Positions 263-12,525 of a stretch of DNA of 12,987 nt are shown in pieces (position 1 is the stretch's first letter; each line of letters opens with the position of its first letter). The position numbers and the translations under genes were made by a program. Under the pieces are notes generated by a model. It made no database searches and was not told the origin of the DNA. It saw nothing but the letters and a program-made list of their open reading frames with translations. The DNA comes from Erysipelotrichaceae bacterium (GTDB taxonomy: Bacteria; Bacillota_I; Bacilli_A; Erysipelotrichales; Erysipelotrichaceae): the NCBI GenBank assembly GCA_963586925.1, contig CAVAAT010000042.1, positions 22,289 to 35,275 of the forward strand. The letters run 5' to 3'.

Positions 263-1753
263 ATGAATGAATTATTAAAGAAATATAAAGAGAAGATGTT
301 TGAAATATCAGCAATGCAGTTAGCAGTTGGTACAATCTTCCTAGATCAAGATACTATTGCTCCAATAAAGGGTGATAGTTATCGTAATGAAAGATTAGCT
401 TATTTAAGTGGTGAACTATATTCTTTGACTACTAGTGATGAGTTTTATAACTTATTAAAACAATTAGTTGAATGTGATGATATTGATGAGCAAACAAGAA
501 GGATCATCAATTGGCAGATCATTGATTTAGATAAACAGCGTTGTGTGCCTAAGGATTTTTATGTTGAGATGACTAAGAATCAAATGGAAAGTGGTCAAGC
601 TTGGCAAAAAGCTAAACAAAATGATGATTATTCTTTATTTGAACCATACTTATTAAAGACCATTGAATATAGTAAACAGTTATTAAAGTATCGTGAAGGA
701 AAGCTTAAAGGTTATGATATCTTCTTGGATGATTATGAACCAGGAATGACTATTGAAAAATATGATGCTTTCTTTGAGGGACTAAAGAATGGTATCGTAC
801 CGATCATCAAAAAGATCAATGAGACTAAACAGATAGATGATAGTTTTGTTTATAAACATTATCCAAGAGAAAAACAAGAGATCTTAATGAAAAAGATATT
901 GGAGTATATAGGATTTGATTTTGAAGCTGGTGTATTGTTAGAGTCAGAACATCCATTTACAGATTCTTTAAGCAAATATGATAATCGTATCACTACCCAC
1001 TATTATGAAGATAATCTTATCAGTTCTATTTTCTCAGTTATTCATGAAGCAGGACACGCTAATTACAATTATTCTGTTAGAGAAGATATTGCTGAGACAT
1101 TCTGTTTTAACAACATGAGTAGTGGTATGCATGAATCACAATCTCGTTTATTTGAAAATTATTTAGGTAAGAATCCTCATTTCTGGGATAAGTTATTTAA
1201 GGATATCAAAGAATTATTCCCAGAACAGTTAGAAGCCGTTGATCAAGAAATGTATATCAAAGCGATCAATAAAGCTATCCCTTCGTTAGTAAGAACAGAA
1301 GCTGATGAACTTACTTATCCACTTCATATCGTTATTCGTTATGAGATAGAAAAAGGTATCTTTGATGGTTCTATCGACCCTAAGGACTTAAGAGAAGTTT
1401 GGAATCAAAAATATAAGGAATATTTACAGATCGATGTACCTAATGATAAAGAAGGTATCTTACAAGATATGCATTGGGGAAGTGGTTCATTCGGTTATTT
1501 CCCTACTTATGCTTTAGGTAGTGGCTATGCAGCACAATTTGTTCATGCTATGAGTAAAGATATTGATATTGATGCCACTTTAGCTAACAATGAGTTTTAT
1601 AAGTTAAAAGATTGGTTAAGAGAACATATTCATCAATATGGTGGCTTGTATTCACCACTAGAGCAGATCAAGATCGCTACTGACGAAGACTTTGATCCAC
1701 AATACTATGTTGACTATCTAGTAAATAAATATACTAAACTTTATGAACTATAA
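263..1753 (+). CDS. M32-family (carboxypeptidase Taq type) zinc metallocarboxypeptidase
   Basis: 496-aa ORF. AGGAG lies 8 nt upstream of ATG 263. HExxH zinc motif HEAGH is at nt 1043-1057. Other M32 hallmarks are present: EHPFT, DNRITT, HESQSRLFEN, VRTEADE, GILQDMHWG and GYFPTYALG. Confidence 0.9.
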   Translation: MNELLKKYKEKMFEISAMQLAVGTIFLDQDTIAPIKGDSYRNERLAYLSGELYSLTTSDEFYNLLKQLVECDDIDEQTRRIINWQIIDLDKQRCVPKDFYVEMTKNQMESGQAWQKAKQNDDYSLFEPYLLKTIEYSKQLLKYREGKLKGYDIFLDDYEPGMTIEKYDAFFEGLKNGIVPIIKKINETKQIDDSFVYKHYPREKQEILMKKILEYIGFDFEAGVLLESEHPFTDSLSKYDNRITTHYYEDNLISSIFSVIHEAGHANYNYSVREDIAETFCFNNMSSGMHESQSRLFENYLGKNPHFWDKLFKDIKELFPEQLEAVDQEMYIKAINKAIPSLVRTEADELTYPLHIVIRYEIEKGIFDGSIDPKDLREVWNQKYKEYLQIDVPNDKEGILQDMHWGSGSFGYFPTYALGSGYAAQFVHAMSKDIDIDATLANNEFYKLKDWLREHIHQYGGLYSPLEQIKIATDEDFDPQYYVDYLVNKYTKLYEL

Positions 1754-1772
1754 GATAGAAAGACGGGTATAA

Positions 1773-2537
1773 ATGAATATACATGAATATGGCAAAGATA
1801 ATAAAAAAGTCATAGTATTGTTACATCCAGCTGCTGTTAGATGGGATTTCTTTGAAAAAGTGATCCCTTTACTGGAAAATGAATATCATCTGCTCATACC
1901 AGCAATAGTAGGTTATGATGAACAAAATCCTAAGGATGATTTCATCAGTGTTGAAAGTTTCACTGATGAATTAGCTGATTGGTTAAAAGACCATGATATA
2001 AATACTATCGATCTTCTATATGGTTGCAGCATGGGTGGAGCTCTTGCGATACATACCTTTGCGAAAAGAAAAGTAGAGATCTTAAATGTGATAATTGATG
2101 GTGGCATCACTCCTTATCAATTACCTTGGATCATTACTAGGCTAATCGCTATCAGAGATTTCATCGGCTTGTCTTTAGGAAAAATTTTAGGGAATTCTTT
2201 TGTTACTCTTTTGGGTAAAGCTTTTTCTACTAGTGGCTATGATAAAAAAGATTTAGAGTATATCGTAAATGTCTTGCATAGCATGAGCTATAAGACTATT
2301 TGGAATACTTTTGATTCTTGTGATAATTATTCAATGCCAGAAACCATACCTGAATTTAATGGTACTTTCCAATATTGGTATGGACAAAAAGAGAAGAAAA
2401 ATCGTAAACTTGACATAGAATATGTCAAAAAGACTTTCCCATATGCAACTTTCATTGAAATGAAAGATCTAGGCCACGCGTCAATGGCAACTTTACATCC
2501 TTTAGAAACCGTAGAGAGGTTTAATTCTCTATTGTAA
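1773..2537 (+). CDS. alpha/beta-fold hydrolase (esterase/lipase-like), specific substrate unknown
   Basis: 254-aa ORF. Nucleophile elbow G-x-S-x-G is present as GCSMGG. N-terminal VIVLLHPA resembles an oxyanion strand. C-terminal LGHASM is a candidate catalytic His. Double stop TAATAA. Confidence 0.72.
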   Translation: MNIHEYGKDNKKVIVLLHPAAVRWDFFEKVIPLLENEYHLLIPAIVGYDEQNPKDDFISVESFTDELADWLKDHDINTIDLLYGCSMGGALAIHTFAKRKVEILNVIIDGGITPYQLPWIITRLIAIRDFIGLSLGKILGNSFVTLLGKAFSTSGYDKKDLEYIVNVLHSMSYKTIWNTFDSCDNYSMPETIPEFNGTFQYWYGQKEKKNRKLDIEYVKKTFPYATFIEMKDLGHASMATLHPLETVERFNSLL

Positions 2538-2566
2538 TAAACAATTAAGAATAGGAGGTAATTGTT

Positions 2567-3517
2567 TTGAGAAGAAGAAATATCATTATTGATTGCGACC
2601 CTGGTCATGACGATGCCATCGCATTTTTAGTAGCACTAGCTAATCCTAAGTATTTTAATATACTTGGTATCACTACTATCTGTGGTAATTCTACCTTAGA
2701 GAATACTACGAGAAATGCTTTGCAGTTAGTGGAATTCTTTAATGAAGATATTCCTGTAGCTAGTGGCTATGAGCATCCACTTTTAAGAAAAGTCCAGACA
2801 GCTGCTTTTGTTCATGGTGAAAGTGGCATGGCTGGTCCAGTCTTACCTGAGCCAAAGAAGGCAAAGGATAAGAGACACGCTATTGAGTTTTTAAAGGACA
2901 CTATTTCTCAAAGTGATGAAAAAGTGACTTTGATCACTTTAGGTCCTTTGACTAACATTGGCATTTTCTTAAAGACTTATCCTAAATTAAAAGAGAAGAT
3001 TGATTGCATCGCTTTAATGGGTGGTTCTATCTATGGAGGAAATATCTTAGCAAAAGCAGAGTTTAATATCTTCCAAGACCCAGAAGCAGCTAAGATGGTC
3101 TTTGATAGTGGAGTAAAGATAATAATGGCACCTACTGAAGCATGTGATGAAGGTGGCATCTTGTTTACTGAGGTAGAAGAGTTTAAAAAAGGTGGAAGAA
3201 CATCTAAATTAGCTTATGAACTATTTGACTATTATGGTCAATATTGTGCTAAAAATGGTTGGGACAAGACAGTTATCTATGATATGACACCGATTATCTA
3301 CTTGATGCATCCTGAATACTTTGAAACAGAGCAAATGCGAGTAGATATTGAATGTGGTGGACAATATACTAGAGGAATGACAGTATGTGATTTTAGAGGA
3401 GGAGCTCATATTGGTAAGTGTGCTGATCCTAAGACAGTATTGACTCATACTGATAGAAAAAAGTTTGTTCAAGTATTATTTGATGCTCTAAAATATCTTG
3501 ATGAAAAGTATAACTGA
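2567..3517 (+). CDS. nucleoside hydrolase (IUNH/Rih family, inosine-uridine preferring type)
   Basis: 316-aa ORF with a TTG start preceded by TAGGAGG at 2552-2558. The N-terminal family fingerprint DxDxxxDD is present as IIIDCDPGHDDAIA. The length is typical of the family. Confidence 0.87.
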   Translation: MRRRNIIIDCDPGHDDAIAFLVALANPKYFNILGITTICGNSTLENTTRNALQLVEFFNEDIPVASGYEHPLLRKVQTAAFVHGESGMAGPVLPEPKKAKDKRHAIEFLKDTISQSDEKVTLITLGPLTNIGIFLKTYPKLKEKIDCIALMGGSIYGGNILAKAEFNIFQDPEAAKMVFDSGVKIIMAPTEACDEGGILFTEVEEFKKGGRTSKLAYELFDYYGQYCAKNGWDKTVIYDMTPIIYLMHPEYFETEQMRVDIECGGQYTRGMTVCDFRGGAHIGKCADPKTVLTHTDRKKFVQVLFDALKYLDEKYN

Positions 3518-3541
3518 GAGAGTTTGAAACTCTCTTTTTTC
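3516..3541 (+). terminator. rho-independent terminator after the nucleoside hydrolase gene
   Basis: AGAGAGTT (3517-3524) pairs with AACTCTCT (3528-3535) around a short loop. A T-run follows at 3535-3540. The element overlaps the TGA stop. Confidence 0.7.
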
Positions 3542-3570
3542 TTGCAAGAGTCTTGATTTGATATTATCAT
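3542..3570 (+). promoter_or_regulatory. candidate sigma-A promoter for rnr
   Basis: TTGCAA (3542-3547), 17-nt spacer, TATCAT (3565-3570). An alternative extended -10 is TGaTATTAT at 3559-3567. A strong SD AAAGGAGG at 3584-3591 precedes ATG 3598. Motif-level evidence only. Confidence 0.3.
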
Positions 3571-3597
3571 TTTTATTGGATCAAAGGAGGTCAGAAA

Positions 3598-5682
3598 ATG
3601 GAAGAAAAGATATTAGAGATACTTAGTAAAGGCAAAGATTATTCAGCTTTAGAGATCAGTGAACAGTTGAAATTGGCTGCGAAAGAATATACACAGCTAG
3701 TTAAGACATTAAATAAGCTAATTGATGAAGATAAAGTTTTTTTGAATGAACATGAAAGATATGAGTTGATGACTTCTCAAGATTCATTTAAAGGAGATCT
3801 TATTGTTAAGAGAAATGGTAAGAGCTTTGTGTTATTTAGAGGAGAACTTATTGAAGTAAAAAATGCTTATAAGTTCAATTGCTTAAATAATGATGAGATC
3901 GTTTATCGAGTTAGTGGTCATACCGCAAGTATAGTTAGGGTCATTAAGCATAATCTTGTTTATGTTGTAGGTTTGATAAGAGTTAAAAGAGGTAAGACAT
4001 ATTTTTCTTGTGATGATCCTTCTTTTCCTAAAGGTTATAAGATCATCAATTATGAACAATTTGACTTGAGAGATAATGTTAAAGTCAGATGTTATATTTC
4101 TGATTATCAAAAGAAACAACTAAGAATTGAGAAGGTTTTAGGTTTTGCTTATAGCAGTGAAGTAAGAGAATTGTCTATTTTATATTCTCATGATATTTCA
4201 ACGGAGTTTACTAGTACGTGCTTAAATGAGGCGAAGCTATTTACTGATGATGTCAAAGTTGAAGATCATAAAGATAGACATGATTGTACGGATGAGCTCA
4301 TCATCACTATTGATGGGGATGATGCTAAGGATTTTGATGATGCTATCTCAATTGAGAAAGACAAGGAGAACAACTATATTTTAAAGGTTCATATTGCTGA
4401 TGTTTCTCATTATGTAACTATTAATAGTGCTATTGATAAGGAAGCTTTAAAAAGAGGTACTTCTATCTATTATCCAGGACATGTTATCCCTATGCTACCT
4501 AATGCGTTGTCTGATGAACTATGTAGTTTACAACCTAATAAGAACAGACTTGCTATGACTTGTGAGATGCATTATGATGCTTTAGGAAATATGACTAGTT
4601 ATGATATCTATAAGTCAGTCATTAGATCAAAGTATCGTATGACATATAATAAAGTCAATGCGATCTTTGAAGGAGACGAAAAACTCATTAAGCAATATAG
4701 TGGTATATTAGATATGTTAGCTAATGCTAGGGAATTATCTGATAAATTAAAAGCTAAGAGTGCCGAAAAAGGCAGTATTGATTTTGAAAGTGATGATTGC
4801 GACATCATATTGGATAAACAGGGTAAAGTAGTTGATGTCATGGCAGCTGAAACTGGCTTATCACAAGGCATTATTGAATGTTTTATGATCGAAGCTAATA
4901 AGACAGTGGCAAGTCATATGCGTGTTTTAGAATATCCAATGGTCTATCGTAATCATGATCATCCAAAACCTGAAAAGATCGAAGTTTTCTATAACTTAGT
5001 AGAATCGTTAGGTTATCATTTTAAGGGTAAGAAGGATAATATCTATCCTAAACAATTACAAGATTGTTTAAGCTCATTTAAAGATTCTTTAGAATATCCG
5101 ATCATTTCCACATTCTTGTTGCGTTCAATGGCTAAAGCTAAATATGAGAATGATAGTATTGGTCATTTTGGCTTGGGACTAGAGGATTATTGTCATTTTA
5201 CTTCTCCAATAAGAAGATATCCTGATTTACAAGTTCATAGAATGCTTAAGAAATATGTTATTGATCAACCTGATTATTCTTTAATGGCACAAGATAAGTA
5301 TGATAATGCTCTTATCGCTAAGAAATCTTCTGAAAGAGAAGTGGAAGCTACTAAGATTGAAAGAGATATAACTGATCTGTTAAAGTGTGAATATATGTCC
5401 CACCATGTTAATGAAACATTTATGGGGGTTATCTCTTCTACTACCACATATGGTTTTTATGTTAAGTTAGAAAATACTATTGAAGGTTTAGTTCATATTA
5501 GTACTTTACAAGGATTCTATCAGTTAGCTGATGATGGTTCTTTGACTTGTGAAGAGTTCGATAAGTCTTATAAGATAGGTCAGATAGTTAAAGTGCGTTG
5601 TGTTGATGTTAATTTATTAAGACAAGACATTGATTTTGAACTTGTAAGAGAGAGAAAAAAGAAGAATAAGTCAAATATTTAG
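3598..5682 (+). CDS. rnr: ribonuclease R (3'-5' exoribonuclease, RNB family)
   Basis: 694-aa ORF. It has an N-terminal winged-helix-like segment, a cold-shock-like region and the RNB catalytic motif ITIDGDDAKDFDDAIS. Also present are HFGLG...YCHFTSPIRRYPDL, a C-terminal S1 domain (GVISSTTTYGFYVKLENTIEGLVHIS) and a Lys-rich tail. Confidence 0.92.
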   Translation: MEEKILEILSKGKDYSALEISEQLKLAAKEYTQLVKTLNKLIDEDKVFLNEHERYELMTSQDSFKGDLIVKRNGKSFVLFRGELIEVKNAYKFNCLNNDEIVYRVSGHTASIVRVIKHNLVYVVGLIRVKRGKTYFSCDDPSFPKGYKIINYEQFDLRDNVKVRCYISDYQKKQLRIEKVLGFAYSSEVRELSILYSHDISTEFTSTCLNEAKLFTDDVKVEDHKDRHDCTDELIITIDGDDAKDFDDAISIEKDKENNYILKVHIADVSHYVTINSAIDKEALKRGTSIYYPGHVIPMLPNALSDELCSLQPNKNRLAMTCEMHYDALGNMTSYDIYKSVIRSKYRMTYNKVNAIFEGDEKLIKQYSGILDMLANARELSDKLKAKSAEKGSIDFESDDCDIILDKQGKVVDVMAAETGLSQGIIECFMIEANKTVASHMRVLEYPMVYRNHDHPKPEKIEVFYNLVESLGYHFKGKKDNIYPKQLQDCLSSFKDSLEYPIISTFLLRSMAKAKYENDSIGHFGLGLEDYCHFTSPIRRYPDLQVHRMLKKYVIDQPDYSLMAQDKYDNALIAKKSSEREVEATKIERDITDLLKCEYMSHHVNETFMGVISSTTTYGFYVKLENTIEGLVHISTLQGFYQLADDGSLTCEEFDKSYKIGQIVKVRCVDVNLLRQDIDFELVRERKKKNKSNI

Positions 5683-5708
5683 CACTTTGAATTAAAAAGT
5701 GCTAAAAT
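5681..5708 (+). promoter_or_regulatory. perfect 8-N7-8 inverted repeat overlapping an extended -10 like element; weak terminator and/or operator
   Basis: AGCACTTT (5681-5688), 7-nt spacer, AAAGTGCT (5696-5703), starting inside the rnr stop codon. The right arm runs into TGcTAAAAT (5700-5708), an extended -10 consensus about 30 nt upstream of ATG 5739. The downstream T-run is interrupted (AAAATATCTTTT), so it is not a canonical terminator. Confidence 0.3.
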
Positions 5709-5738
5709 ATCTTTTGTGTGAAGGAAAGAAGGAAGAGT

Positions 5739-7109
5739 ATGAAGACTAAGATTGATATATTCTCTGGCTTTTTAGGAGCTGGCAAGACAACATTAATTAG
5801 AAAATTAATTAAAGAAGCTTATAGTGATCAGAAGATCGTGATCATTGAAAATGAATTTGGAGAGATCGGTATTGATGGAGATTTCTTAAAAGATGCAGGT
5901 ATTGAAATAAAAGAAATGAGCCAAGGTTGTATCTGTTGCTCACTTGTTGGTGACTTTACAACGGCTTTAAAGAAAGTCATTGAGGAAATGCAGCCAGAAA
6001 GGATCATCATCGAACCATCAGGTGTTGGTAAATTATCTGATGTCATTAAAGCTGTACAAAATGTTGATAGTGATGATATTGAATTAAGTAGCTTTACTAC
6101 TATCTGCGATGGTAAGAAAGTTGAAATGTACGCTAAAAACTTTGGTGAATTCTACAATGACCAAATTGAACATGCAAATTGCATTGTTATCAGTAGAAGC
6201 CAAGCATTATCTGAAGAAAAGTTAGATGCTATTGTTAAGATGATCAGGGAAAAGAACTCTGTAGCTACCATCATCACAACTCCTTGGGATGATATCAGTG
6301 GTGAAAAGATCGTTGAGACAATGGAACATAAAGATACATTAAATACAGAACTAGAAAAGTTAAAAGAAGAAGTTGAACATGAGCATCATCATCACGATGA
6401 GGATGAAGATGACGATCATGAGTGTTGTTGCCACCACCATCACGATGAGGATGAAGATGACGATCATGAGTGTTGTTGCCACCATCATCACGATGAAGAT
6501 GAGGATGATGATCATGAGTGTTGTTGCCACCATCATCACGATGAGGATGAAGATGACGATCATGAGTGTTGTTGCCACCACCATCACGATGAGGATGAAG
6601 ATGACGATCATGAGTGTTGTTGCCACCATCATCACGATGAAGATGAAGATGAAGATGACGATCATGAGTGTTGTTGCCACCACCATCACGATGAAGATGA
6701 AGATGATGATCATGAGTGTTGTTGCCATCACCATCACGATGAAGATGAGGATGATGAGCATGAGTGTTGTTGTCACCATCATCACGATGAAGATGAAGAA
6801 CATGAACATCACCACCACCATCATGCTGATGAGATCTTTACTAGTTGGGGAAAAGAAACGAACCACAAGTATAGTAAAGAAGAGATTGCTAATATCTTGA
6901 AACAATTAGATGATCAAGATAAATATGGTATTGTCTTAAGGGCTAAAGGTATTGTTGAAGGTAAAGATGGTAAGTGGATCTATTTTGATTATGTACCTGA
7001 AGAGACCGATATCAGAGATGGCAATGCGATCGCTATGGGTAGATTCTGTGTCATTGGTTCTAAGATGGATCAAGAAGCAATTGAAAAGTTATTTGGTAAT
7101 AAGGAATAG
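5739..7109 (+). CDS. COG0523 / CobW-family G3E GTPase metallochaperone with a giant His/Cys/Asp/Glu repeat linker
   Basis: P-loop GFLGAGKTT at 5766-5792. CxCC metal motif GCICCS (Cys codons 5928-5939). Walker B-like IIIEPSGVG. CobW_C-type tail (GIVLRAKGIV...FCVIGSKMD). I prefer ATG 5739, with AAGGAAG about 6 nt upstream, over the track's GTG 5718, which has no SD. This gives 456 aa. Confidence 0.9.
   Translation: MKTKIDIFSGFLGAGKTTLIRKLIKEAYSDQKIVIIENEFGEIGIDGDFLKDAGIEIKEMSQGCICCSLVGDFTTALKKVIEEMQPERIIIEPSGVGKLSDVIKAVQNVDSDDIELSSFTTICDGKKVEMYAKNFGEFYNDQIEHANCIVISRSQALSEEKLDAIVKMIREKNSVATIITTPWDDISGEKIVETMEHKDTLNTELEKLKEEVEHEHHHHDEDEDDDHECCCHHHHDEDEDDDHECCCHHHHDEDEDDDHECCCHHHHDEDEDDDHECCCHHHHDEDEDDDHECCCHHHHDEDEDEDDDHECCCHHHHDEDEDDDHECCCHHHHDEDEDDEHECCCHHHHDEDEEHEHHHHHHADEIFTSWGKETNHKYSKEEIANILKQLDDQDKYGIVLRAKGIVEGKDGKWIYFDYVPEETDIRDGNAIAMGRFCVIGSKMDQEAIEKLFGNKE
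6384..6824 (+). repeat. in-frame 48-bp tandem repeat, 8 full units plus one partial, each encoding HHHHDEDEDDDHECCC
   Basis: Hand-aligned unit starts are 6384, 6432, 6480, 6528, 6576, 6624 (54 bp, extra GAAGAT), 6678 and 6726. A degenerate ninth unit spans 6774-6824 (HHHHDEDEEHEHHHHHH). Units 2 and 5 are identical over 48 nt. Confidence 0.95.
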
Positions 7110-7111
7110 TT

Positions 7112-8062
7112 ATGGATACTAATGAAAGACCTGTTTATGTTTTTACCGGCTTTTTAGAGTCTGGTAAGACTAGTTTCATCATTGAAAATATTTCTAATCC
7201 TGCCTTTTGTGCACCAGGAGAGATGACGGTTGTCATTGCTTGTGAAGACGGGGAGAAACAATATGATGAAGTTGAATCTGATGAGATCAAAGTTGTTTAT
7301 GTATCAGAACAAGATGATCTGACTTATGATTATTGTATGCAACTTCAACAACAATATGATCCTGATAAGATCATCATTGAATATAATGGTATGTGGAATA
7401 TAAATGATTTGTACCAGATCATACCAGAAAATTGGCTGATCGTGCAACAGATCAATGTTGCAGATGCTTCTACTTTCTTAGCTTACAATACGATGTTTAG
7501 AAACCTTATGGTTGAAAAGATCGCAGGAGCTGAGTTTATGTTGTTCAATAGAGTCAATCACGATGATGATAAGATGCAATATCATAAGGTCGTAAGACAA
7601 GTAAATCGTAAGTGTGAAATTGCTTATGAATATACTGATGGTCAGGGTGAATATGATGATATTGTTGATCCACTACCATTTGATATGAATGCAGATGTCA
7701 TTGATATTGAATTTAGGGATTATGCTTTATGGATCCAAGATGTTGTTCAGAATTATGATAAGTATGTTGGTAAAAAAGTTAAAGTAATAGCTAAAGCTGT
7801 ACCGAATGATAAATTAGAAAATAATTCATTTAGTTTTGGCAGAAGAGTTATGACTTGTTGTGTGGCTGATATCAAGTTTATGGGACTTGTTTGCGAGAAC
7901 TTAACTGATGAAGAAGTGAAATTACCTGCTTGGTATGAAGTTGAAGCTGAATTCTGTTGTGGTTATCAAAAAATATTTAATGCTAAAGTTCCTTATCTTA
8001 AAGCCTATAATATAAGAGAAGTTGATATTCCTGCAGAAGATGAAGTGGCTACTTTCTATTAA
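7112..8062 (+). CDS. degenerate G3E/CobW-like NTPase paralog (no CxCC) fused to a Cys-rich C-terminal domain with an MTCCxAD motif (DUF1980/TIGR03943-C-like)
   Basis: ATG lies 2 nt after the upstream stop, and AAGGAA at 7100-7105 serves as SD. N-terminus PVYVFTGFLESGKTSFI (P-loop at 7148-7174) parallels the upstream gene. IIIEYNGMW parallels IIIEPSGVG. No CxCC is present and there is no CobW_C RAKG tail. The C-terminal region has RRVMTCCVADIKFMGLVC (7850-7870 encodes MTCCVAD) and FCCGY (Cys codons 7955-7960). Confidence 0.7.
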   Translation: MDTNERPVYVFTGFLESGKTSFIIENISNPAFCAPGEMTVVIACEDGEKQYDEVESDEIKVVYVSEQDDLTYDYCMQLQQQYDPDKIIIEYNGMWNINDLYQIIPENWLIVQQINVADASTFLAYNTMFRNLMVEKIAGAEFMLFNRVNHDDDKMQYHKVVRQVNRKCEIAYEYTDGQGEYDDIVDPLPFDMNADVIDIEFRDYALWIQDVVQNYDKYVGKKVKVIAKAVPNDKLENNSFSFGRRVMTCCVADIKFMGLVCENLTDEEVKLPAWYEVEAEFCCGYQKIFNAKVPYLKAYNIREVDIPAEDEVATFY

Positions 8063-8112: not shown

Positions 8113-8595
8113 ATGAAAAAAAGAGTTTTATTTATTTCTAGTACTGGTGGTCACTTAGATGAATTATTACAACTTAAAGCTATGTTTGATAAATATGACT
8201 ATCACATCATTACAGAAAAGACAAAAGCTAATATGAGTTTAAAAGAAAAATATCCAGGTAAAGTATCATATCTTACTTATGGTACTTATACTGGTCTTGT
8301 CAATAAGTGTATCTATCCTTTTAAACTTTTGTGGAATACTTTAAAGTCATTTGTGTTTTATTGTAAGTACAGACCACAATATGTTGTATCTACTGGTGCT
8401 CATACTGCAGGTCCAATGTGTCTTATTGCTCATTTGTTAGGCAGTAAGGTCATCTTTATTGAAACATTTGCTAATAGCAATTCTAGAAGTAAGTGTGGTT
8501 CTATTGTCTATAAGTTTGCTGACTTGTTCATTGTGCAATGGGAAAGCATGTTAGAACAATATCCTAATGCTGTTTATGGGGGGTGGATATTTTGA
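8113..8595 (+). CDS. Alg14-like / PssD / Cps14F-family glycosyltransferase accessory (membrane-anchoring) subunit
   Basis: 160-aa ORF. GGTGAG SD at 8104-8109. N-terminal LFISSTGGHLDEL (the SxGGH motif typical of Alg14/PssD). Its size and position directly upstream of an Alg13-like gene fit the family. Confidence 0.75.
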   Translation: MKKRVLFISSTGGHLDELLQLKAMFDKYDYHIITEKTKANMSLKEKYPGKVSYLTYGTYTGLVNKCIYPFKLLWNTLKSFVFYCKYRPQYVVSTGAHTAGPMCLIAHLLGSKVIFIETFANSNSRSKCGSIVYKFADLFIVQWESMLEQYPNAVYGGWIF

Positions 8596-9071
8596 TCTTA
8601 GTAACTTTGGGTACGCAAGATAAACAATTTAATCGTTTACTTGAGGCAGTACAAAAAGCCATTAATGAAGGCTATATCAAAGATAAAGTAGTAGTACAAG
8701 CAGGTTATACCCATTTTGAAAGTAAGGATATGGAGATCTTTGATCTTATTGATAGAGAAAAGTTTTCTAGTTTAATTGCTGAATGTGATATTCTAATCAC
8801 CCATGGTGGAGTAGGATCTATTCTTACAGGTTTAAAAAATGGTAAGAAAGTCATTGCTTGTCCTAGACTTGCGAAGTATCAAGAACATGTCAATGACCAT
8901 CAAAAGCAGATTATTGAAAGATTTTATCAAGCCCATCTATTAATCAAACTTGATGAAAATGATGATCTTGGAAAAGTCATAGAACAAACAAAGGATTTTG
9001 TGCCAGAGAAGTTTGTAAGTAATAATGCTAACTTCGTAAAGATGGTAGAAGAGTTTATTGATAATAATTAG
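8583..9071 (+). CDS. Alg13-like / PssE / Cps14G-family glycosyltransferase catalytic subunit (GT28 C-terminal domain)
   Basis: ILVTLGTQDKQFNRLL and ITHGGVGSIL match the Glyco_tran_28_C pattern (fVTvGt..F..L, sHaGaGsi). Start is GTG 8583 or, perhaps better, TTG 8592. TTG 8592 forms a TTGA start/stop overlap with the upstream TGA (8593-8595) and sits 8 nt after the G-run at 8578-8583. Confidence 0.75.
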   Translation: MDILILVTLGTQDKQFNRLLEAVQKAINEGYIKDKVVVQAGYTHFESKDMEIFDLIDREKFSSLIAECDILITHGGVGSILTGLKNGKKVIACPRLAKYQEHVNDHQKQIIERFYQAHLLIKLDENDDLGKVIEQTKDFVPEKFVSNNANFVKMVEEFIDNN

Positions 9072-9099
9072 AAAAATGATATATGGATATCATTTTTTT
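9072..9099 (+). terminator. rho-independent terminator
   Basis: ATGATAT (9076-9082), loop ATGG, ATATCAT (9087-9093). The stem is extendable by A/T pairs and is followed by T6 at 9094-9099, immediately after stop TAG 9069-9071. Confidence 0.8.
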
Positions 9100-9244
9100 G
9101 CTTTTAACCGTTTATATTGTTAAGAATTGTTTAATAATCATTAAAAATGTTCTCATTAATTAAATAAAAAGTTAAAATACTAAAGTATGTTGGGCACTAT
9201 TGGAAAGGGGTAAACGATTAGATCGTTGTTTGAAATTGATTAGT

Positions 9245-10090
9245 ATGGAACAGTTAGAAAAAGCAACAGGTGAGTTAAGAAGATTACAATTAAAAATGTT
9301 AGATATAATAAAGGATATTGATAAACTTTGTAAAGAAAATGAAATTCAGTATTATATCTTTTATGGTTCAGCTTTGGGGGCAGTAAGGCACAAAGGATTT
9401 ATTCCTTGGGATGATGATTTTGATATTGCGATGACTTATGATAATTACATAAAGTTCATTAAGATAGCAGAAGAAAAAATGGATAAGAGCAAATATTTCA
9501 TTCAAACCCCTGGGAAAGAAAAAGAATATTACCTACAATTTACTAAGATCAGAGATATCAATACAACTTTAATCGAAAATTTTAATAAAGATAAAAATGT
9601 AGTGCGCAGTGTTTTTGTTGATGTTTTCCCACTTGTAGGAGCACCTACAAGTAAGATTGGTTGGTTCTTTTTTAAACTAGATAGGGCTTTTGTCCTTTCG
9701 TGCGATAACAACATCATTCGTAGTAAGGCATTGTATTCGTTTTTTAAAGTCATGTTAAAAATATTTGGTAAAGAAAAGATCATTAAGCATTTTGGTAAAA
9801 AATGTACGAAATATGATGTTAACAAAAGTGAACAAGTCGTCTCATTTGCGGACACTTGGGCATTAGAAAAATCAACTTACTCTAAAAAAGCCTTAGGTAG
9901 ACCAACTTATGTAGAGTTTGAAGATACTATTTTACCGATCCCAGAAGATTATGACAGTATATTAAGGAATATATATGGAAATTATATGCAGATTCCAAGT
10001 AAAGAAGAAAGAAAAAGAGCTGAACATTCACGTTACTTTCTTGACTTAGATATGCCATATGCTCAGTATATTAAAAATCTAGAAAAGTAG
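9245..10090 (+). CDS. licD: LicD-family phosphotransferase (phosphocholine/polyol-phosphate transferase family)
   Basis: YGSALGAVRHKGFIPWDDDFDIAM is the LicD signature. I prefer ATG 9245 (MEQLEK...) by alignment with the second paralog's N-terminus. The track's TTG 9200 has no SD. Neither start has a good SD, so the start is uncertain. Confidence 0.82.
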   Translation: MEQLEKATGELRRLQLKMLDIIKDIDKLCKENEIQYYIFYGSALGAVRHKGFIPWDDDFDIAMTYDNYIKFIKIAEEKMDKSKYFIQTPGKEKEYYLQFTKIRDINTTLIENFNKDKNVVRSVFVDVFPLVGAPTSKIGWFFFKLDRAFVLSCDNNIIRSKALYSFFKVMLKIFGKEKIIKHFGKKCTKYDVNKSEQVVSFADTWALEKSTYSKKALGRPTYVEFEDTILPIPEDYDSILRNIYGNYMQIPSKEERKRAEHSRYFLDLDMPYAQYIKNLEK

Positions 10091-10115
10091 GAATTATTTT
10101 TAGTGAGGTGATAGT

Positions 10116-11597
10116 TTGAAAAATAAGTTTATTAAAAATAGCATTGTGTTAGTGTATGTTTTGCTACCTATCATAGAAATGTTAAGAGCAACATCTTTAA
10201 AGAATGTCGAGATATTTAATATTGCTCTTATCGAACTGGTGAATATTCTATTGATCTCTTTTGCTTTTGCTTGCTTCTTTTTTACTAAAACGGACAAAAA
10301 ATTAAAAATAAAGATAATGTTGTTTGCTGCGATATTTGTGATATATATAATTTTACATTGTATCAATAATGCTAATTTTGATTCTTCTATCTTGCCAGAC
10401 ACCAATATAAGCTATTTTGTAGAGGTATATTATATTTTAAGACAATATGTTTTACCCCTTATGATGCTGATGCTATTAAAATGGTGTGATGATATCTTTG
10501 ATAGAGATTTTTACCTGAAGATTGTTAGGTATTTCACTTATATTTGTTGTGGATCGATCGTTATCTTGAATTTATGCCGATTCTCTTATAATTCATACAC
10601 GAGTGCAGATAATGAGTATGCCATAAATACAAGTTGTATATTTGACTTGATCAATTATGATGGTAACTTAAAAAATCTATTTACTTGCGGCTTATTTCCT
10701 TCCGCAAACAGACTTTCGATCGTATTATTGATGTTATTACCTTACAATGTCATGAATTTGTACTATGAAAAAAAGATAAGAAATGTTTTGCAGCTTTGCT
10801 TACAGGTATTAGCTATGTTCATTATCGGTACTAAGACTGCGGCTCTTGGTTCATTATTGACTGTTACTTGTTTATTGCTTGCTTATTTCTTCTTTATGAT
10901 AGTTAAACGCAAATATTATAAGTTTAATGATTATGTAGTCAAATTGGCATGTGTTGTAGCCTTCGCTTTTGTTTGTATGTGTGTTACACCTTTTGGACAT
11001 TATTTTTCTCAAACTACATCACTGACTAATAAACTTACTGAAAAAGAGCAACTCATCTACGATAGCTTAGATAATGTTGAAGATGATGATCTACAACAAT
11101 ATCTTTATGATAACAAGACCGTTTTTAAGATTAATGAGTCCTTTTTTGAATATTATCCTGTAGAAAATGATACTGAGTTTTGGCGAATGATCGCTAAAAG
11201 GAAAAGAAGTTTGAATAATGATTATCGTAATTTGAAAGTAACAATACTTGAAAGAGTTGAAGAAAGAAATAACAATCCATTAGATAAATACTTAGGAATG
11301 GGTTATACCATCAACTTCCCTGATGCAGAAAGAGATTATATTTATCAATACTATTTGTTTGGCATAAGTGGTATATTATTACTGATAGTTCCATATGTTG
11401 TTGAATATCTAAAAAAAATACGGGTATTCTTACATAAGAGAGAGTTTACTTATGCTAATTGCTTTGGCTTATTAGCGGGTTTTTTAGGCATAGTTGGTGC
11501 TTACTTTTCTGGACATTTATTTGGTTGGACTGGACCAATGTTCATTTTAGTATTTGTTATGGGATATCAGAAGAGGTTGCATAAAGATGAAAGTTAG
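10116..11597 (+). CDS. polytopic membrane protein, O-antigen ligase / Wzy-type polymerase family
   Basis: 493 aa. TTG start with GAGGTGA at 10104-10110. About 11-12 hydrophobic segments by eye. IIGTKTAALGSLL resembles the Wzy_C motif (GSRxxxLal). A hydrophilic loop of about 100 aa follows it, then 2-3 more TM segments. Confidence 0.6.
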   Translation: MKNKFIKNSIVLVYVLLPIIEMLRATSLKNVEIFNIALIELVNILLISFAFACFFFTKTDKKLKIKIMLFAAIFVIYIILHCINNANFDSSILPDTNISYFVEVYYILRQYVLPLMMLMLLKWCDDIFDRDFYLKIVRYFTYICCGSIVILNLCRFSYNSYTSADNEYAINTSCIFDLINYDGNLKNLFTCGLFPSANRLSIVLLMLLPYNVMNLYYEKKIRNVLQLCLQVLAMFIIGTKTAALGSLLTVTCLLLAYFFFMIVKRKYYKFNDYVVKLACVVAFAFVCMCVTPFGHYFSQTTSLTNKLTEKEQLIYDSLDNVEDDDLQQYLYDNKTVFKINESFFEYYPVENDTEFWRMIAKRKRSLNNDYRNLKVTILERVEERNNNPLDKYLGMGYTINFPDAERDYIYQYYLFGISGILLLIVPYVVEYLKKIRVFLHKREFTYANCFGLLAGFLGIVGAYFSGHLFGWTGPMFILVFVMGYQKRLHKDES

Positions 11598-12525
11598 TGT
11601 TATTGTACCGGTATATAATACCCAAGATTATTTAAGAAAATGTCTTGATAGTTTAATACAACAAGATTTTGAGGATTATGAGATCGTTGTTGTTAATGAT
11701 GGCTCACCAGATGAAAGTCAAAATATCATTGATGAGTATAAGAAAAATCCAATCATTAAATCTTATGTAAAGGTTAATGGTGGTCTGTCTGATGCACGAA
11801 ACTATGGTTTGGATAGGGCAGAAGGTGAGTATATAGCTTTTGTTGATAGTGATGATTACATCAAAAGTGATATGTTGAGAAAAATGTATGACAAAGCTAA
11901 AAAAGATGATCTTGATGTAGTAGTATGTGATAGTATCAATGTTTATCCTGATGGTAATGAAGTGCTTGTTCATTCAAACTTACATTATAGTGATGATGAA
12001 GTTAAAAATTACTTGATAGCTGCACCTATGGCTTGTACTAGGATGTTTAAAAGAGAAATTTTTGATAATATTAAGTTTAAAGTTGGCATCTACTATGAAG
12101 ATCTACATTTATGTCCAAAAGTGGTAAATTTAACAAATAAGATTGGATTTGTCGAAGAGGGCTTGTATTATTACTATCAAAGAGATGATTCAATAATGAA
12201 ACAAAAGAAGTTTAATAATAAACTTCTAGATATATTTACTGTCTTACAATCTAATAAGGATATGTTAGGAAAAGATCATCCACTAGAAATTGAGTATATG
12301 TATATCACTCATTTATTAAGAACAGCGTCATTAAGATTCTTAGAATATGATAATCCAAAAGAATATTTAAATAAAATTAATGATATTTTTAGGAATGATT
12401 ATCCTAATTGGAGAAAGAATATCTATTATAAGAAATCTAGTTACAAGTTAAAACTTATTTGTAACTTGTCTTATATGAAAATGTATGGTTTATTAAAACT
12501 GATCAAAAAGATAACAAATAAATGA
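11587..12525 (+). CDS. family 2 glycosyltransferase (GT-A fold)
   Basis: MKVSVIVPVYN, VVVNDGSPDES and the DxD motif FVDSDD. ATG 11587 with AAGAGG at 11571-11576 overlaps the upstream stop (11595-11597) by 11 nt. The track's 11554 start adds 11 residues not typical of GT2 enzymes. Confidence 0.88.
   Translation: MKVSVIVPVYNTQDYLRKCLDSLIQQDFEDYEIVVVNDGSPDESQNIIDEYKKNPIIKSYVKVNGGLSDARNYGLDRAEGEYIAFVDSDDYIKSDMLRKMYDKAKKDDLDVVVCDSINVYPDGNEVLVHSNLHYSDDEVKNYLIAAPMACTRMFKREIFDNIKFKVGIYYEDLHLCPKVVNLTNKIGFVEEGLYYYYQRDDSIMKQKKFNNKLLDIFTVLQSNKDMLGKDHPLEIEYMYITHLLRTASLRFLEYDNPKEYLNKINDIFRNDYPNWRKNIYYKKSSYKLKLICNLSYMKMYGLLKLIKKITNK

Follow-up and report, generated by a model that had tools for sequence, protein, structure and literature searches.

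COG0523 proteins are, to our knowledge, the least understood of the metallochaperones, with clients established for just a handful of them. Several members of the family, including ZagA/YciC, YeiR and ZNG1, feature His-rich linkers. The subject of this analysis is a COG0523-family GTPase encoded in a 12,987-nucleotide stretch of DNA from an Erysipelotrichaceae bacterium (GenBank assembly GCA_963586925.1, contig CAVAAT010000042.1, positions 22,289 to 35,275 of the forward strand; hereafter the window), in which the two domains are joined by a long tandem-repeated linker of His, Cys, Asp and Glu only (an H/C/D/E linker). This linker is probably a disordered reservoir or relay with multiple metal-binding sites and scope for expansion, within a metallochaperone of an uncharacterised COG0523 subfamily, working together with a dedicated partner protein. 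About 40% of COG0523 proteins contain a His stretch, of up to 29 His in Ava_3717, which has been proposed as a mark of metallochaperones (Haas et al., 2009; PMC2770081), and dissection of the inter-domain linker has only recently begun (PMC13001444). The stretches described in that survey consist of His (and Asp) only and reach at most 29 His, whereas the linker in the window has 52 His as well as 24 Cys in CCC clusters. It also differs from them in being strictly tandem-repeated and variable in copy number, and in having a dedicated partner gene.

Metal-binding sequences outside COG0523

Comparable sequences are known from proteins outside the family, including SlyD of Escherichia coli, a peptidyl-prolyl isomerase with a tail of about 50 residues. 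This unstructured tail is dominated by His, Cys, Asp and Glu; it can take up as many as 7 Ni(II), binds Zn as well, and has been proposed as a source or store of Ni (PMC7055735). Like the linker in the window it lacks structure and shares the same four residues, and SlyD is a helper of the G3E GTPase HypB; unlike the linker it is terminal and non-periodic, sits on a peptidyl-prolyl isomerase and is not homologous. In HypB of Bradyrhizobium japonicum, which contains 24 His, 9 Ni are bound (PMC7055735). The His stretch of HypB (B. japonicum and Rhizobium leguminosarum), the UreE tail, Hpn/Hpn-like and CooJ are likewise multi-site sequences for the storage or buffering of metal, either fused to metal-delivery NTPases or acting alongside them, but they are much shorter than the linker, dominated by His, and tied to Ni enzymes (hydrogenase, urease and carbon monoxide dehydrogenase). 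The likeness to metal-binding tails that the original prediction, made from the DNA letters, had pointed out holds for composition, which resembles that of SlyD, the HypB His stretch and UreE (PMC7055735). By this comparison it is an analogy with multi-site His/Cys metal-storage sequences and not homology.

A further comparison is offered by the metallothioneins. Bacterial examples such as SmtA/BmtA have Cys clusters (CC, CxC) and pass from disorder to order on binding metal. The block in the window shares the Cys clusters and the lack of aromatic and aliphatic residues, and metal-induced folding would be expected of it as well. It differs in its 16% Cys, its higher His content and its share of acidic residues (about 49%), in being embedded in an enzyme, and in showing no sequence relationship. 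The linker is an extension of the known theme of His-rich stretches in G3E chaperones and no new category, with the window as the most extreme instance compared. No paper was found on periodic COG0523 linkers with Cys clusters, on the partner family or on DUF1980/TIGR03943; the main similarity-network survey lay outside this literature coverage, and prior mention is possible.

Composition and repeat anatomy of the linker

Translation of positions 6378-6824 in the frame of the gene gives 149 residues, of which 52 are His, 24 Cys, 42 Asp and 31 Glu, with zero other residues. The Pfam families cobW (PF02492, residues 7-178, score 128.7 bits with a gathering cut-off of 20.7, E 2e-37) and CobW_C (PF07683, residues 368-453, score 25.1 bits with a cut-off of 22, E 1.6e-5) flank the block, which is for this reason assigned as an inter-domain linker. 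In the AlphaFold2 model both domains are confident, while residues 215-365 have a predicted local distance difference test score (pLDDT) of about 30. The original prediction of a 149-residue block of four residue types, inserted as a linker into a COG0523 GTPase with its P-loop and CxCC motif intact, is borne out, and the intrinsic disorder that it proposed is supported by the model.

The block is built from eight tandem units (Table 1). Unit 6 (6624-6677), with an additional DE, is 54 nucleotides long, unit 8 has an Asp-to-Glu change, and a His-rich tail, HHHHDEDEEHEHHHHHH, closes the block after unit 8. Tandem Repeats Finder reports a period of 48 with 8.4 copies and 91% matches (score 654), as well as a super-period of 150 nucleotides (score 706). 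The repeat block is far beyond chance. Seven codon columns vary among the eight units, and the differences are six synonymous third-position transitions and one Asp-to-Glu change. Just 11% of the single-base changes possible in the block are synonymous, and so the six of seven observed indicate drift of the DNA under a conserved peptide.

Within the block, the longest stretch repeated exactly measures 116 nucleotides, at an offset of 144 nucleotides, and reflects a recent duplication of three units. Given this length, the units could be miscounted in short-read assembly at k below about 117. An NCBI assembly contains the identical 456-residue protein on a 56-kb contig, and the unit number, taken from a short-read assembly, is no more than probable.

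Two stop-free open reading frames overlap the repeat in other frames, at 6373-6900 on the forward strand (175 residues) and at 6360-6905 on the reverse strand (181 residues). They were rejected as genes, being by-products of the codon composition of the repeat, and carry a risk of mis-calling.

Conservation of the linker among relatives

A homology search with the COG0523 protein returned at least 8000 matches, and the linker counts refer to the best 120. All 120 have an H/C/D/E linker of 36-140 residues in the same position, with a median stretch of 94 residues, 40 His and 9 Cys. In the 93 homologues outside the species group of the window, the pooled composition is 42% His, 26% Asp, 18% Glu and 10% Cys, and Cys occurs almost exclusively in clusters (CC, CCC, CDDP[DE]CxC (CDDPxCxC) and CTCGC). 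Strong periodicity is found in just some of the homologue linkers. At 150 residues, with 52 His and 24 Cys, the linker in the window exceeds all others compared in both length and Cys content.

A second survey started from the partner gene downstream. The genome scan with the partner alignment gave at least 569 species genomes, of which the best 80 were analysed (top match 67% identity). These 80 are Clostridia and one Erysipelotrichia metagenome-assembled genome (MAG); the Clostridia include Oscillospiraceae, Acutalibacteraceae, Ruminococcaceae, Christensenellaceae, Ruminococcus albus 8 and Anaeromassilibacillus senegalensis. Where these loci have enough upstream DNA, about 99% feature a linker-bearing COG0523 gene directly upstream of the partner, whose product has the P-loop, CxCC, RxKG and an H/C/D/E linker of 29-135 residues with 79-100% of these four residues and, in most cases, Cys clusters. 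The sole exception among the loci checked is L044, where the COG0523 protein has no H/C/D/E-rich stretch. The sequence of the unit varies between lineages and the composition is constant, which argues for selection on composition and on ligand clusters. The architecture, for which the original prediction named just shorter and non-periodic analogues, is not rare. Linkers of 29-140 residues with Cys clusters are the norm in a large COG0523 subfamily, being present in 120 of 120 best homologues and in about 99% of the genome loci with enough upstream DNA, and part of these linkers is also periodic.

The number of units differs even between very similar proteins. Twenty-five proteins with flanks 97-100% identical have 1-7 CCC units (36-132 residues), against 8 units (150 residues) in the window. 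In three of them the N-terminal flanks are 100% and the C-terminal flanks 99-100% identical, and the unit numbers are 7, 2 and 1. Alignment of the window with the related locus L004 shows insertions and deletions of whole units.

Such variation could also be expected if the linker were a neutral low-complexity expansion, produced by replication slippage from an ancestral His-rich stretch in a tolerant flexible linker, with a length and Cys content of no specific function and a copy number that may be partly an artefact of assembly. The high variability of unit number among near-identical proteins, the recent higher-order duplication of 144 nucleotides seen as the 116-nucleotide exact repeat, and the fact that all units are multiples of three nucleotides, so that expansions are harmless, would all agree with it. 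Neutral drift fits poorly, however, with 79-100% H/C/D/E in the 80 loci despite differing unit sequences, with Cys that is always clustered, with inter-unit differences that are almost all synonymous, and with just one checked locus whose relative is devoid of the stretch. Given that hundreds of species keep both the composition and the clustering of Cys, and that the unit differences are synonymous, this explanation ranks lowest of those considered and is very improbable.

Searches were also made with the repeat itself. A DNA pattern for HECCCHHHH was found at 12 metagenome loci, 5 of which belong to the COG0523 family. The bare 149-residue linker, compared with a representative library of 1.84 billion proteins, gave 7 matches, all of them unrelated repeats with a 16-residue period, in a search where the composition correction of HMMER suppresses true H/C/D/E matches.

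The linker-bearing proteins come from Clostridia and Erysipelotrichia of the gut and rumen. These lineages are anaerobes, which makes a reducing cytoplasm that keeps the 24 thiols free plausible. The anaerobic setting that had been proposed from the number of thiols is thus supported by the hosts, and the reducing state is plausible. The subfamily covers at least 569 species genomes and thousands of protein clusters at 90% identity in gut and rumen anaerobes, and linkers of 1-8 modules on otherwise identical proteins provide a natural series for the question of whether such a linker stores, relays or senses metal.

Domains and motifs of the GTPase

The start codon ATG at 5739 is favoured over GTG at 5718 because the homologues all begin with MKTKIDIFSGF or MTKIDIF. 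The protein reaches the cut-off of no named NCBIfam equivalog, be it ZigA (NF038288, 83 against 600), CobW (TIGR02475, 89 against 332), the YjiA type (PRK11537, 81 against 361) or the CobW-related selenoprotein (NF041053, 95 against 180). Judged by these profile scores, it is a COG0523 GTPase outside all four named equivalogs, in an uncharacterised subfamily. Its nearest sequence relative in the PDB, and the sole solved one, is YjiA (E 4e-18).

In addition to the P-loop and the CxCC motif, which is the high-affinity metal site of COG0523 proteins (PMC11672702), ENEFGE and the Walker B/G3 motif EPSG are invariant across the 121 aligned relatives. The G4 motif departs from this conservation of canonical motifs, in that Arg replaces the Lys of [NT]KxD throughout the subfamily to give the pattern S-R-[TS]-[D/Q/G] in the 121 sequences. 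The nucleotide preference of the subfamily may, on this pattern, differ from that of canonical COG0523 GTPases. On the C-terminal side, a family-conserved His run followed by ADExFTSWG precedes the C-terminal domain, with H358, H361, A363, F367, S369 and G371 invariant.

The switch I/CxCC loop (5856-5951, residues 40-71) has a pLDDT below 50 in an otherwise confident pair of domains. The low-pLDDT loop may echo the ligand-coupled folding of the G-domain that a paper on ZigA reportedly announces in its title.

Table 1. Coordinates of the features in the window, counted from its first nucleotide.
Feature	Position	Strand	Remarks
CIRCE-like inverted repeat TTAGCACTT-N9-AAGTGCTAA	5679..5705	.	in the 56-nt gap between rnr and the COG0523 gene; overlaps the rnr stop codon
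Promoter-like site TTAGCA-18-TAAAAT with TG	5679..5708	+	within the CIRCE arms; predicted, from a consensus scan only
COG0523-family (G3E) GTPase gene	5739..7109	+	456 aa; open reading frame list, Pfam cobW and CobW_C
Walker A/G1 GFLGAGKTT	5766..5792	+	residues 10-18; invariant in 121 aligned family members
GCICC (CxCC metal site)	5925..5939	+	residues 63-67; invariant in 121 sequences
G4-equivalent SRSQ	6192..6203	+	from the alignment with YjiA, which has TKTD
H/C/D/E-only linker	6375..6824	+	maximal run of 150 aa, residues 213-362; net charge about -69
Eight tandem units HHHHDEDEDDDHECCC (HHHH-DEDEDDD-HE-CCC)	6384..6773	+	48 nt each except unit 6
CobW_C-type C-terminal domain	6825..7106	+	residues 363-456; Pfam; pLDDT 77-94
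RAKG (R401-x-K403-G404), RxKG 'arginine finger' motif	6939..6950	+	invariant in 121 sequences
Partner gene	7112..8062	+	316 aa; begins 2 nt past the COG0523 stop; translationally coupled

Work on ZigA and MigC has identified RxKG as an intramolecular arginine finger, and the linker of ZigA is folded across its CxCC site, with a linker Glu that gates the Zn-stimulated hydrolysis of GTP (preprint, PMC13001444). These findings raise the alternative that the linker is mainly a metal sensor or gate and no store, in which metal-induced collapse of the tether would control access of the RxKG domain, GTPase activity and release of the client, with capacity being incidental. In the protein from the window, the invariant RAKG and the family-wide conservation of the His run with H358 and H361 would be in line with such a switch. 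A few ligands suffice for gating, however, and the 1-8 units present in conspecific proteins are a poor fit to a finely tuned tether and a better one to a dosage-type property such as capacity. Control of this kind as the principal function is accordingly rated rather unlikely.

The partner protein

The original prediction, which was concerned with the linker, overlooked both the translationally coupled gene that follows the GTPase gene and the regulatory element that precedes it. In the N-terminal half of the partner protein, Pfam and the invariant columns reveal a cobW-like P-loop domain with GKT and ExNG and without CxCC. DUF1980_C is matched by the C-terminal 120 residues, at 68.9 bits (cut-off 25.9), and this part contains an invariant MTCCxxD. 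The AlphaFold2 model has a pLDDT of 92.6, and Foldseek relates its N-terminal half to HypB/YjiA and its C-terminal half to single-stranded DNA-binding (SSB) and oligonucleotide/oligosaccharide-binding (OB)-fold proteins, that is, to an OB-like beta-barrel. By sequence, the partner has no meaningful match in the PDB.

The TIGR03943 profile scores 59.9 against its cut-off of 88.8, and its positions 98-219 alone align. The putative permease subunit TIGR03943/DUF1980 thus shares just the C-terminal half with the partner, which has a cobW-like P-loop in place of the N-terminal part of TIGR03943 and is on that account predicted to be soluble.

The partner family comprises at least 7980 clusters, each of 312-324 residues, and adjoins the linker-bearing COG0523 gene in nearly all loci. 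The two genes are set apart by a spacer in Ruminococcus albus and in a small number of other genomes. At L019 (2616-3866, R. albus 8) and L038 (2529-3830), a gene for 416-433 residues with no Pfam match lies between them. An Erysipelotrichia-like MAG has a second, stand-alone cobW-like/DUF1980_C partner on the reverse strand at L101 (6091-7011), some 3 kb away from the canonical pair.

A proposed reservoir or relay for metal delivery

The preferred reading of the linker, as a reservoir or relay, can be laid out as a sequence of proposed steps. In-frame tandem duplication would have expanded the linker into a disordered, poly-anionic array, with His4 and Cys3 as its ligand clusters, and this array would bind many divalent metal ions with low-to-moderate affinity. 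Scaled from the ligand-to-metal ratios of HypB and SlyD, some 10-25 ions might be held, in order of magnitude. As a local reservoir or relay, the linker would load the CxCC site of the G-domain through ligand exchange, the C-terminal domain would close onto the G-domain via the RxKG arginine finger, and metal-dependent compaction of the linker would probably also tune the switch between open and closed states. The partner, with its cobW-like P-loop and DUF1980_C domains and invariant CC motif, may act as a co-chaperone or as an acceptor. Zn(II) is the most likely metal, with Ni, Co and Fe(II) also as candidates; it is the first guess because the family is linked to zinc and no Ni- or Co-enzyme context was seen in the inspected neighbourhoods.

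Several observations weigh against this reading. The His-rich tail of UreE is dispensable for urease activation (PMC7055735). The non-canonical G4 (SRSQ) makes even the use of GTP less than certain, and the differences in unit number among assemblies may come in part from collapse of the repeat. No metal genes occur in the inspected neighbourhoods, where the remaining neighbours vary between lineages. In 76 upstream regions inspected by eye, with no formal motif search, there was no shared element of the Zur, NikR or riboswitch type; most of these regions show plain, strong TTGACA/TGnTATAAT promoters that look constitutive, unlike those of Zur-regulated COG0523 genes. In the window and in loci L001-L003, Rfam at the gathering threshold likewise gave no riboswitch or other RNA family.

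The subfamily offers as leads an obligate partner protein, a possible link between heat shock and metal trafficking, and a natural, putatively high-capacity His/Cys peptide of potential interest to metal-binding biotechnology; if the linker proves dispensable, it would be a caution against assigning function to His-rich low-complexity regions.

A putative heat-shock operator upstream of the pair

The gap upstream of the COG0523 gene contains an inverted repeat resembling CIRCE (controlling inverted repeat of chaperone expression), the operator of HrcA, whose consensus is TTAGCACTC-N9-GAGTGCTAA (PMC3842655). The element matches this consensus at 8 of 9 positions in each arm, with exact spacing. 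It has zero mismatches to TTAGCACT-N11-AGTGCTAA, and from base composition about 4e-6 matches of this kind would be expected per window. It also scores as a hairpin/terminator and could double as the terminator hairpin of rnr.

Elements of this kind precede the pair in three Erysipelotrichia lineages and in three gene arrangements. At L004 (7941-7967) the position is as in the window; at L005 and L006 (2-28) the element lies upstream of rnr, and the gap between rnr and the COG0523 gene is 3 nucleotides; at L087 it occurs twice (4687-4713 and 4733-4759), in an intergenic region shared with a divergent hsp20. CIRCE was not found at two more distant Erysipelotrichia-like loci nor at the Clostridia loci examined. 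The distribution suggests a lineage-specific control of the metallochaperone pair by HrcA, and thus by heat shock, in Erysipelotrichia. CIRCE elements near the pair in R. albus (L019) and at L038 were rejected as its regulators, as they lie upstream of htpG, on the opposite strand and downstream of the pair.

Control by HrcA would also suit a linker that acts like a metallothionein, as a sink for soft metals in excess or at toxic levels (Zn, Cd, Cu(I), Ni). The protein pair would then protect the cell, or buffer the metal that unfolding proteins release under stress, and deliver to no client. The 24 Cys in CCC triplets and the 52 His could serve such a role, CIRCE is in one case common to the pair and hsp20, and the promoters elsewhere look constitutive. 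Yet the host protein retains every catalytic and chaperone motif, the inspected neighbourhoods contain no efflux or detoxification genes, and CIRCE is confined to part of the Erysipelotrichia loci. A pure sink is therefore held to be improbable. The reservoir or relay reading can be taken further with a bolder proposal, in which the COG0523 protein and its partner form a so far unrecognised two-protein system of anaerobic Firmicutes for metal buffering and re-metallation, with a rapidly evolving, strain-variable tandem His4/Cys3 array that sets the capacity, much as if a metallothionein-like reservoir were part of the GTPase, and with recruitment to the HrcA/CIRCE heat-shock regulon in Erysipelotrichia. 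This proposal is tentative and more doubtful than the reading it extends; if true, the recruitment would tie protein-folding stress to the re-insertion of metal.

Neighbouring genes and a related tail on another enzyme

The upstream flank of the window (263-5682) encodes an M32 carboxypeptidase, an alpha/beta hydrolase, a nucleoside hydrolase and RNase R (rnr). The downstream flank (8113-12525) is a putative cell-surface glycan cluster, with an Alg14/Alg13-like pair, a large polytopic membrane protein and a gene resembling glycosyltransferase family 2 (GT2); the Alg14/Alg13-like naming is by analogy with L004 and L005 and not from a Pfam scan of the downstream genes of the window. The order rnr-COG0523-partner-Alg14 is kept in close relatives.

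A comparable tail was noticed on an enzyme outside the family. In metagenome contigs with a GC content of 31-34%, a histidyl-tRNA synthetase (Pfam tRNA-synt_His and HGTP_anticodon; L094, 136-1608, forward strand, and also L095, L096 and L097) features a C-terminal His/Cys/Asp/Glu tail of about 60 residues that ends in GHECCCHHHHHHHEE. This tail indicates that a similar style of ligand clusters occurs on another housekeeping enzyme in low-GC bacteria.

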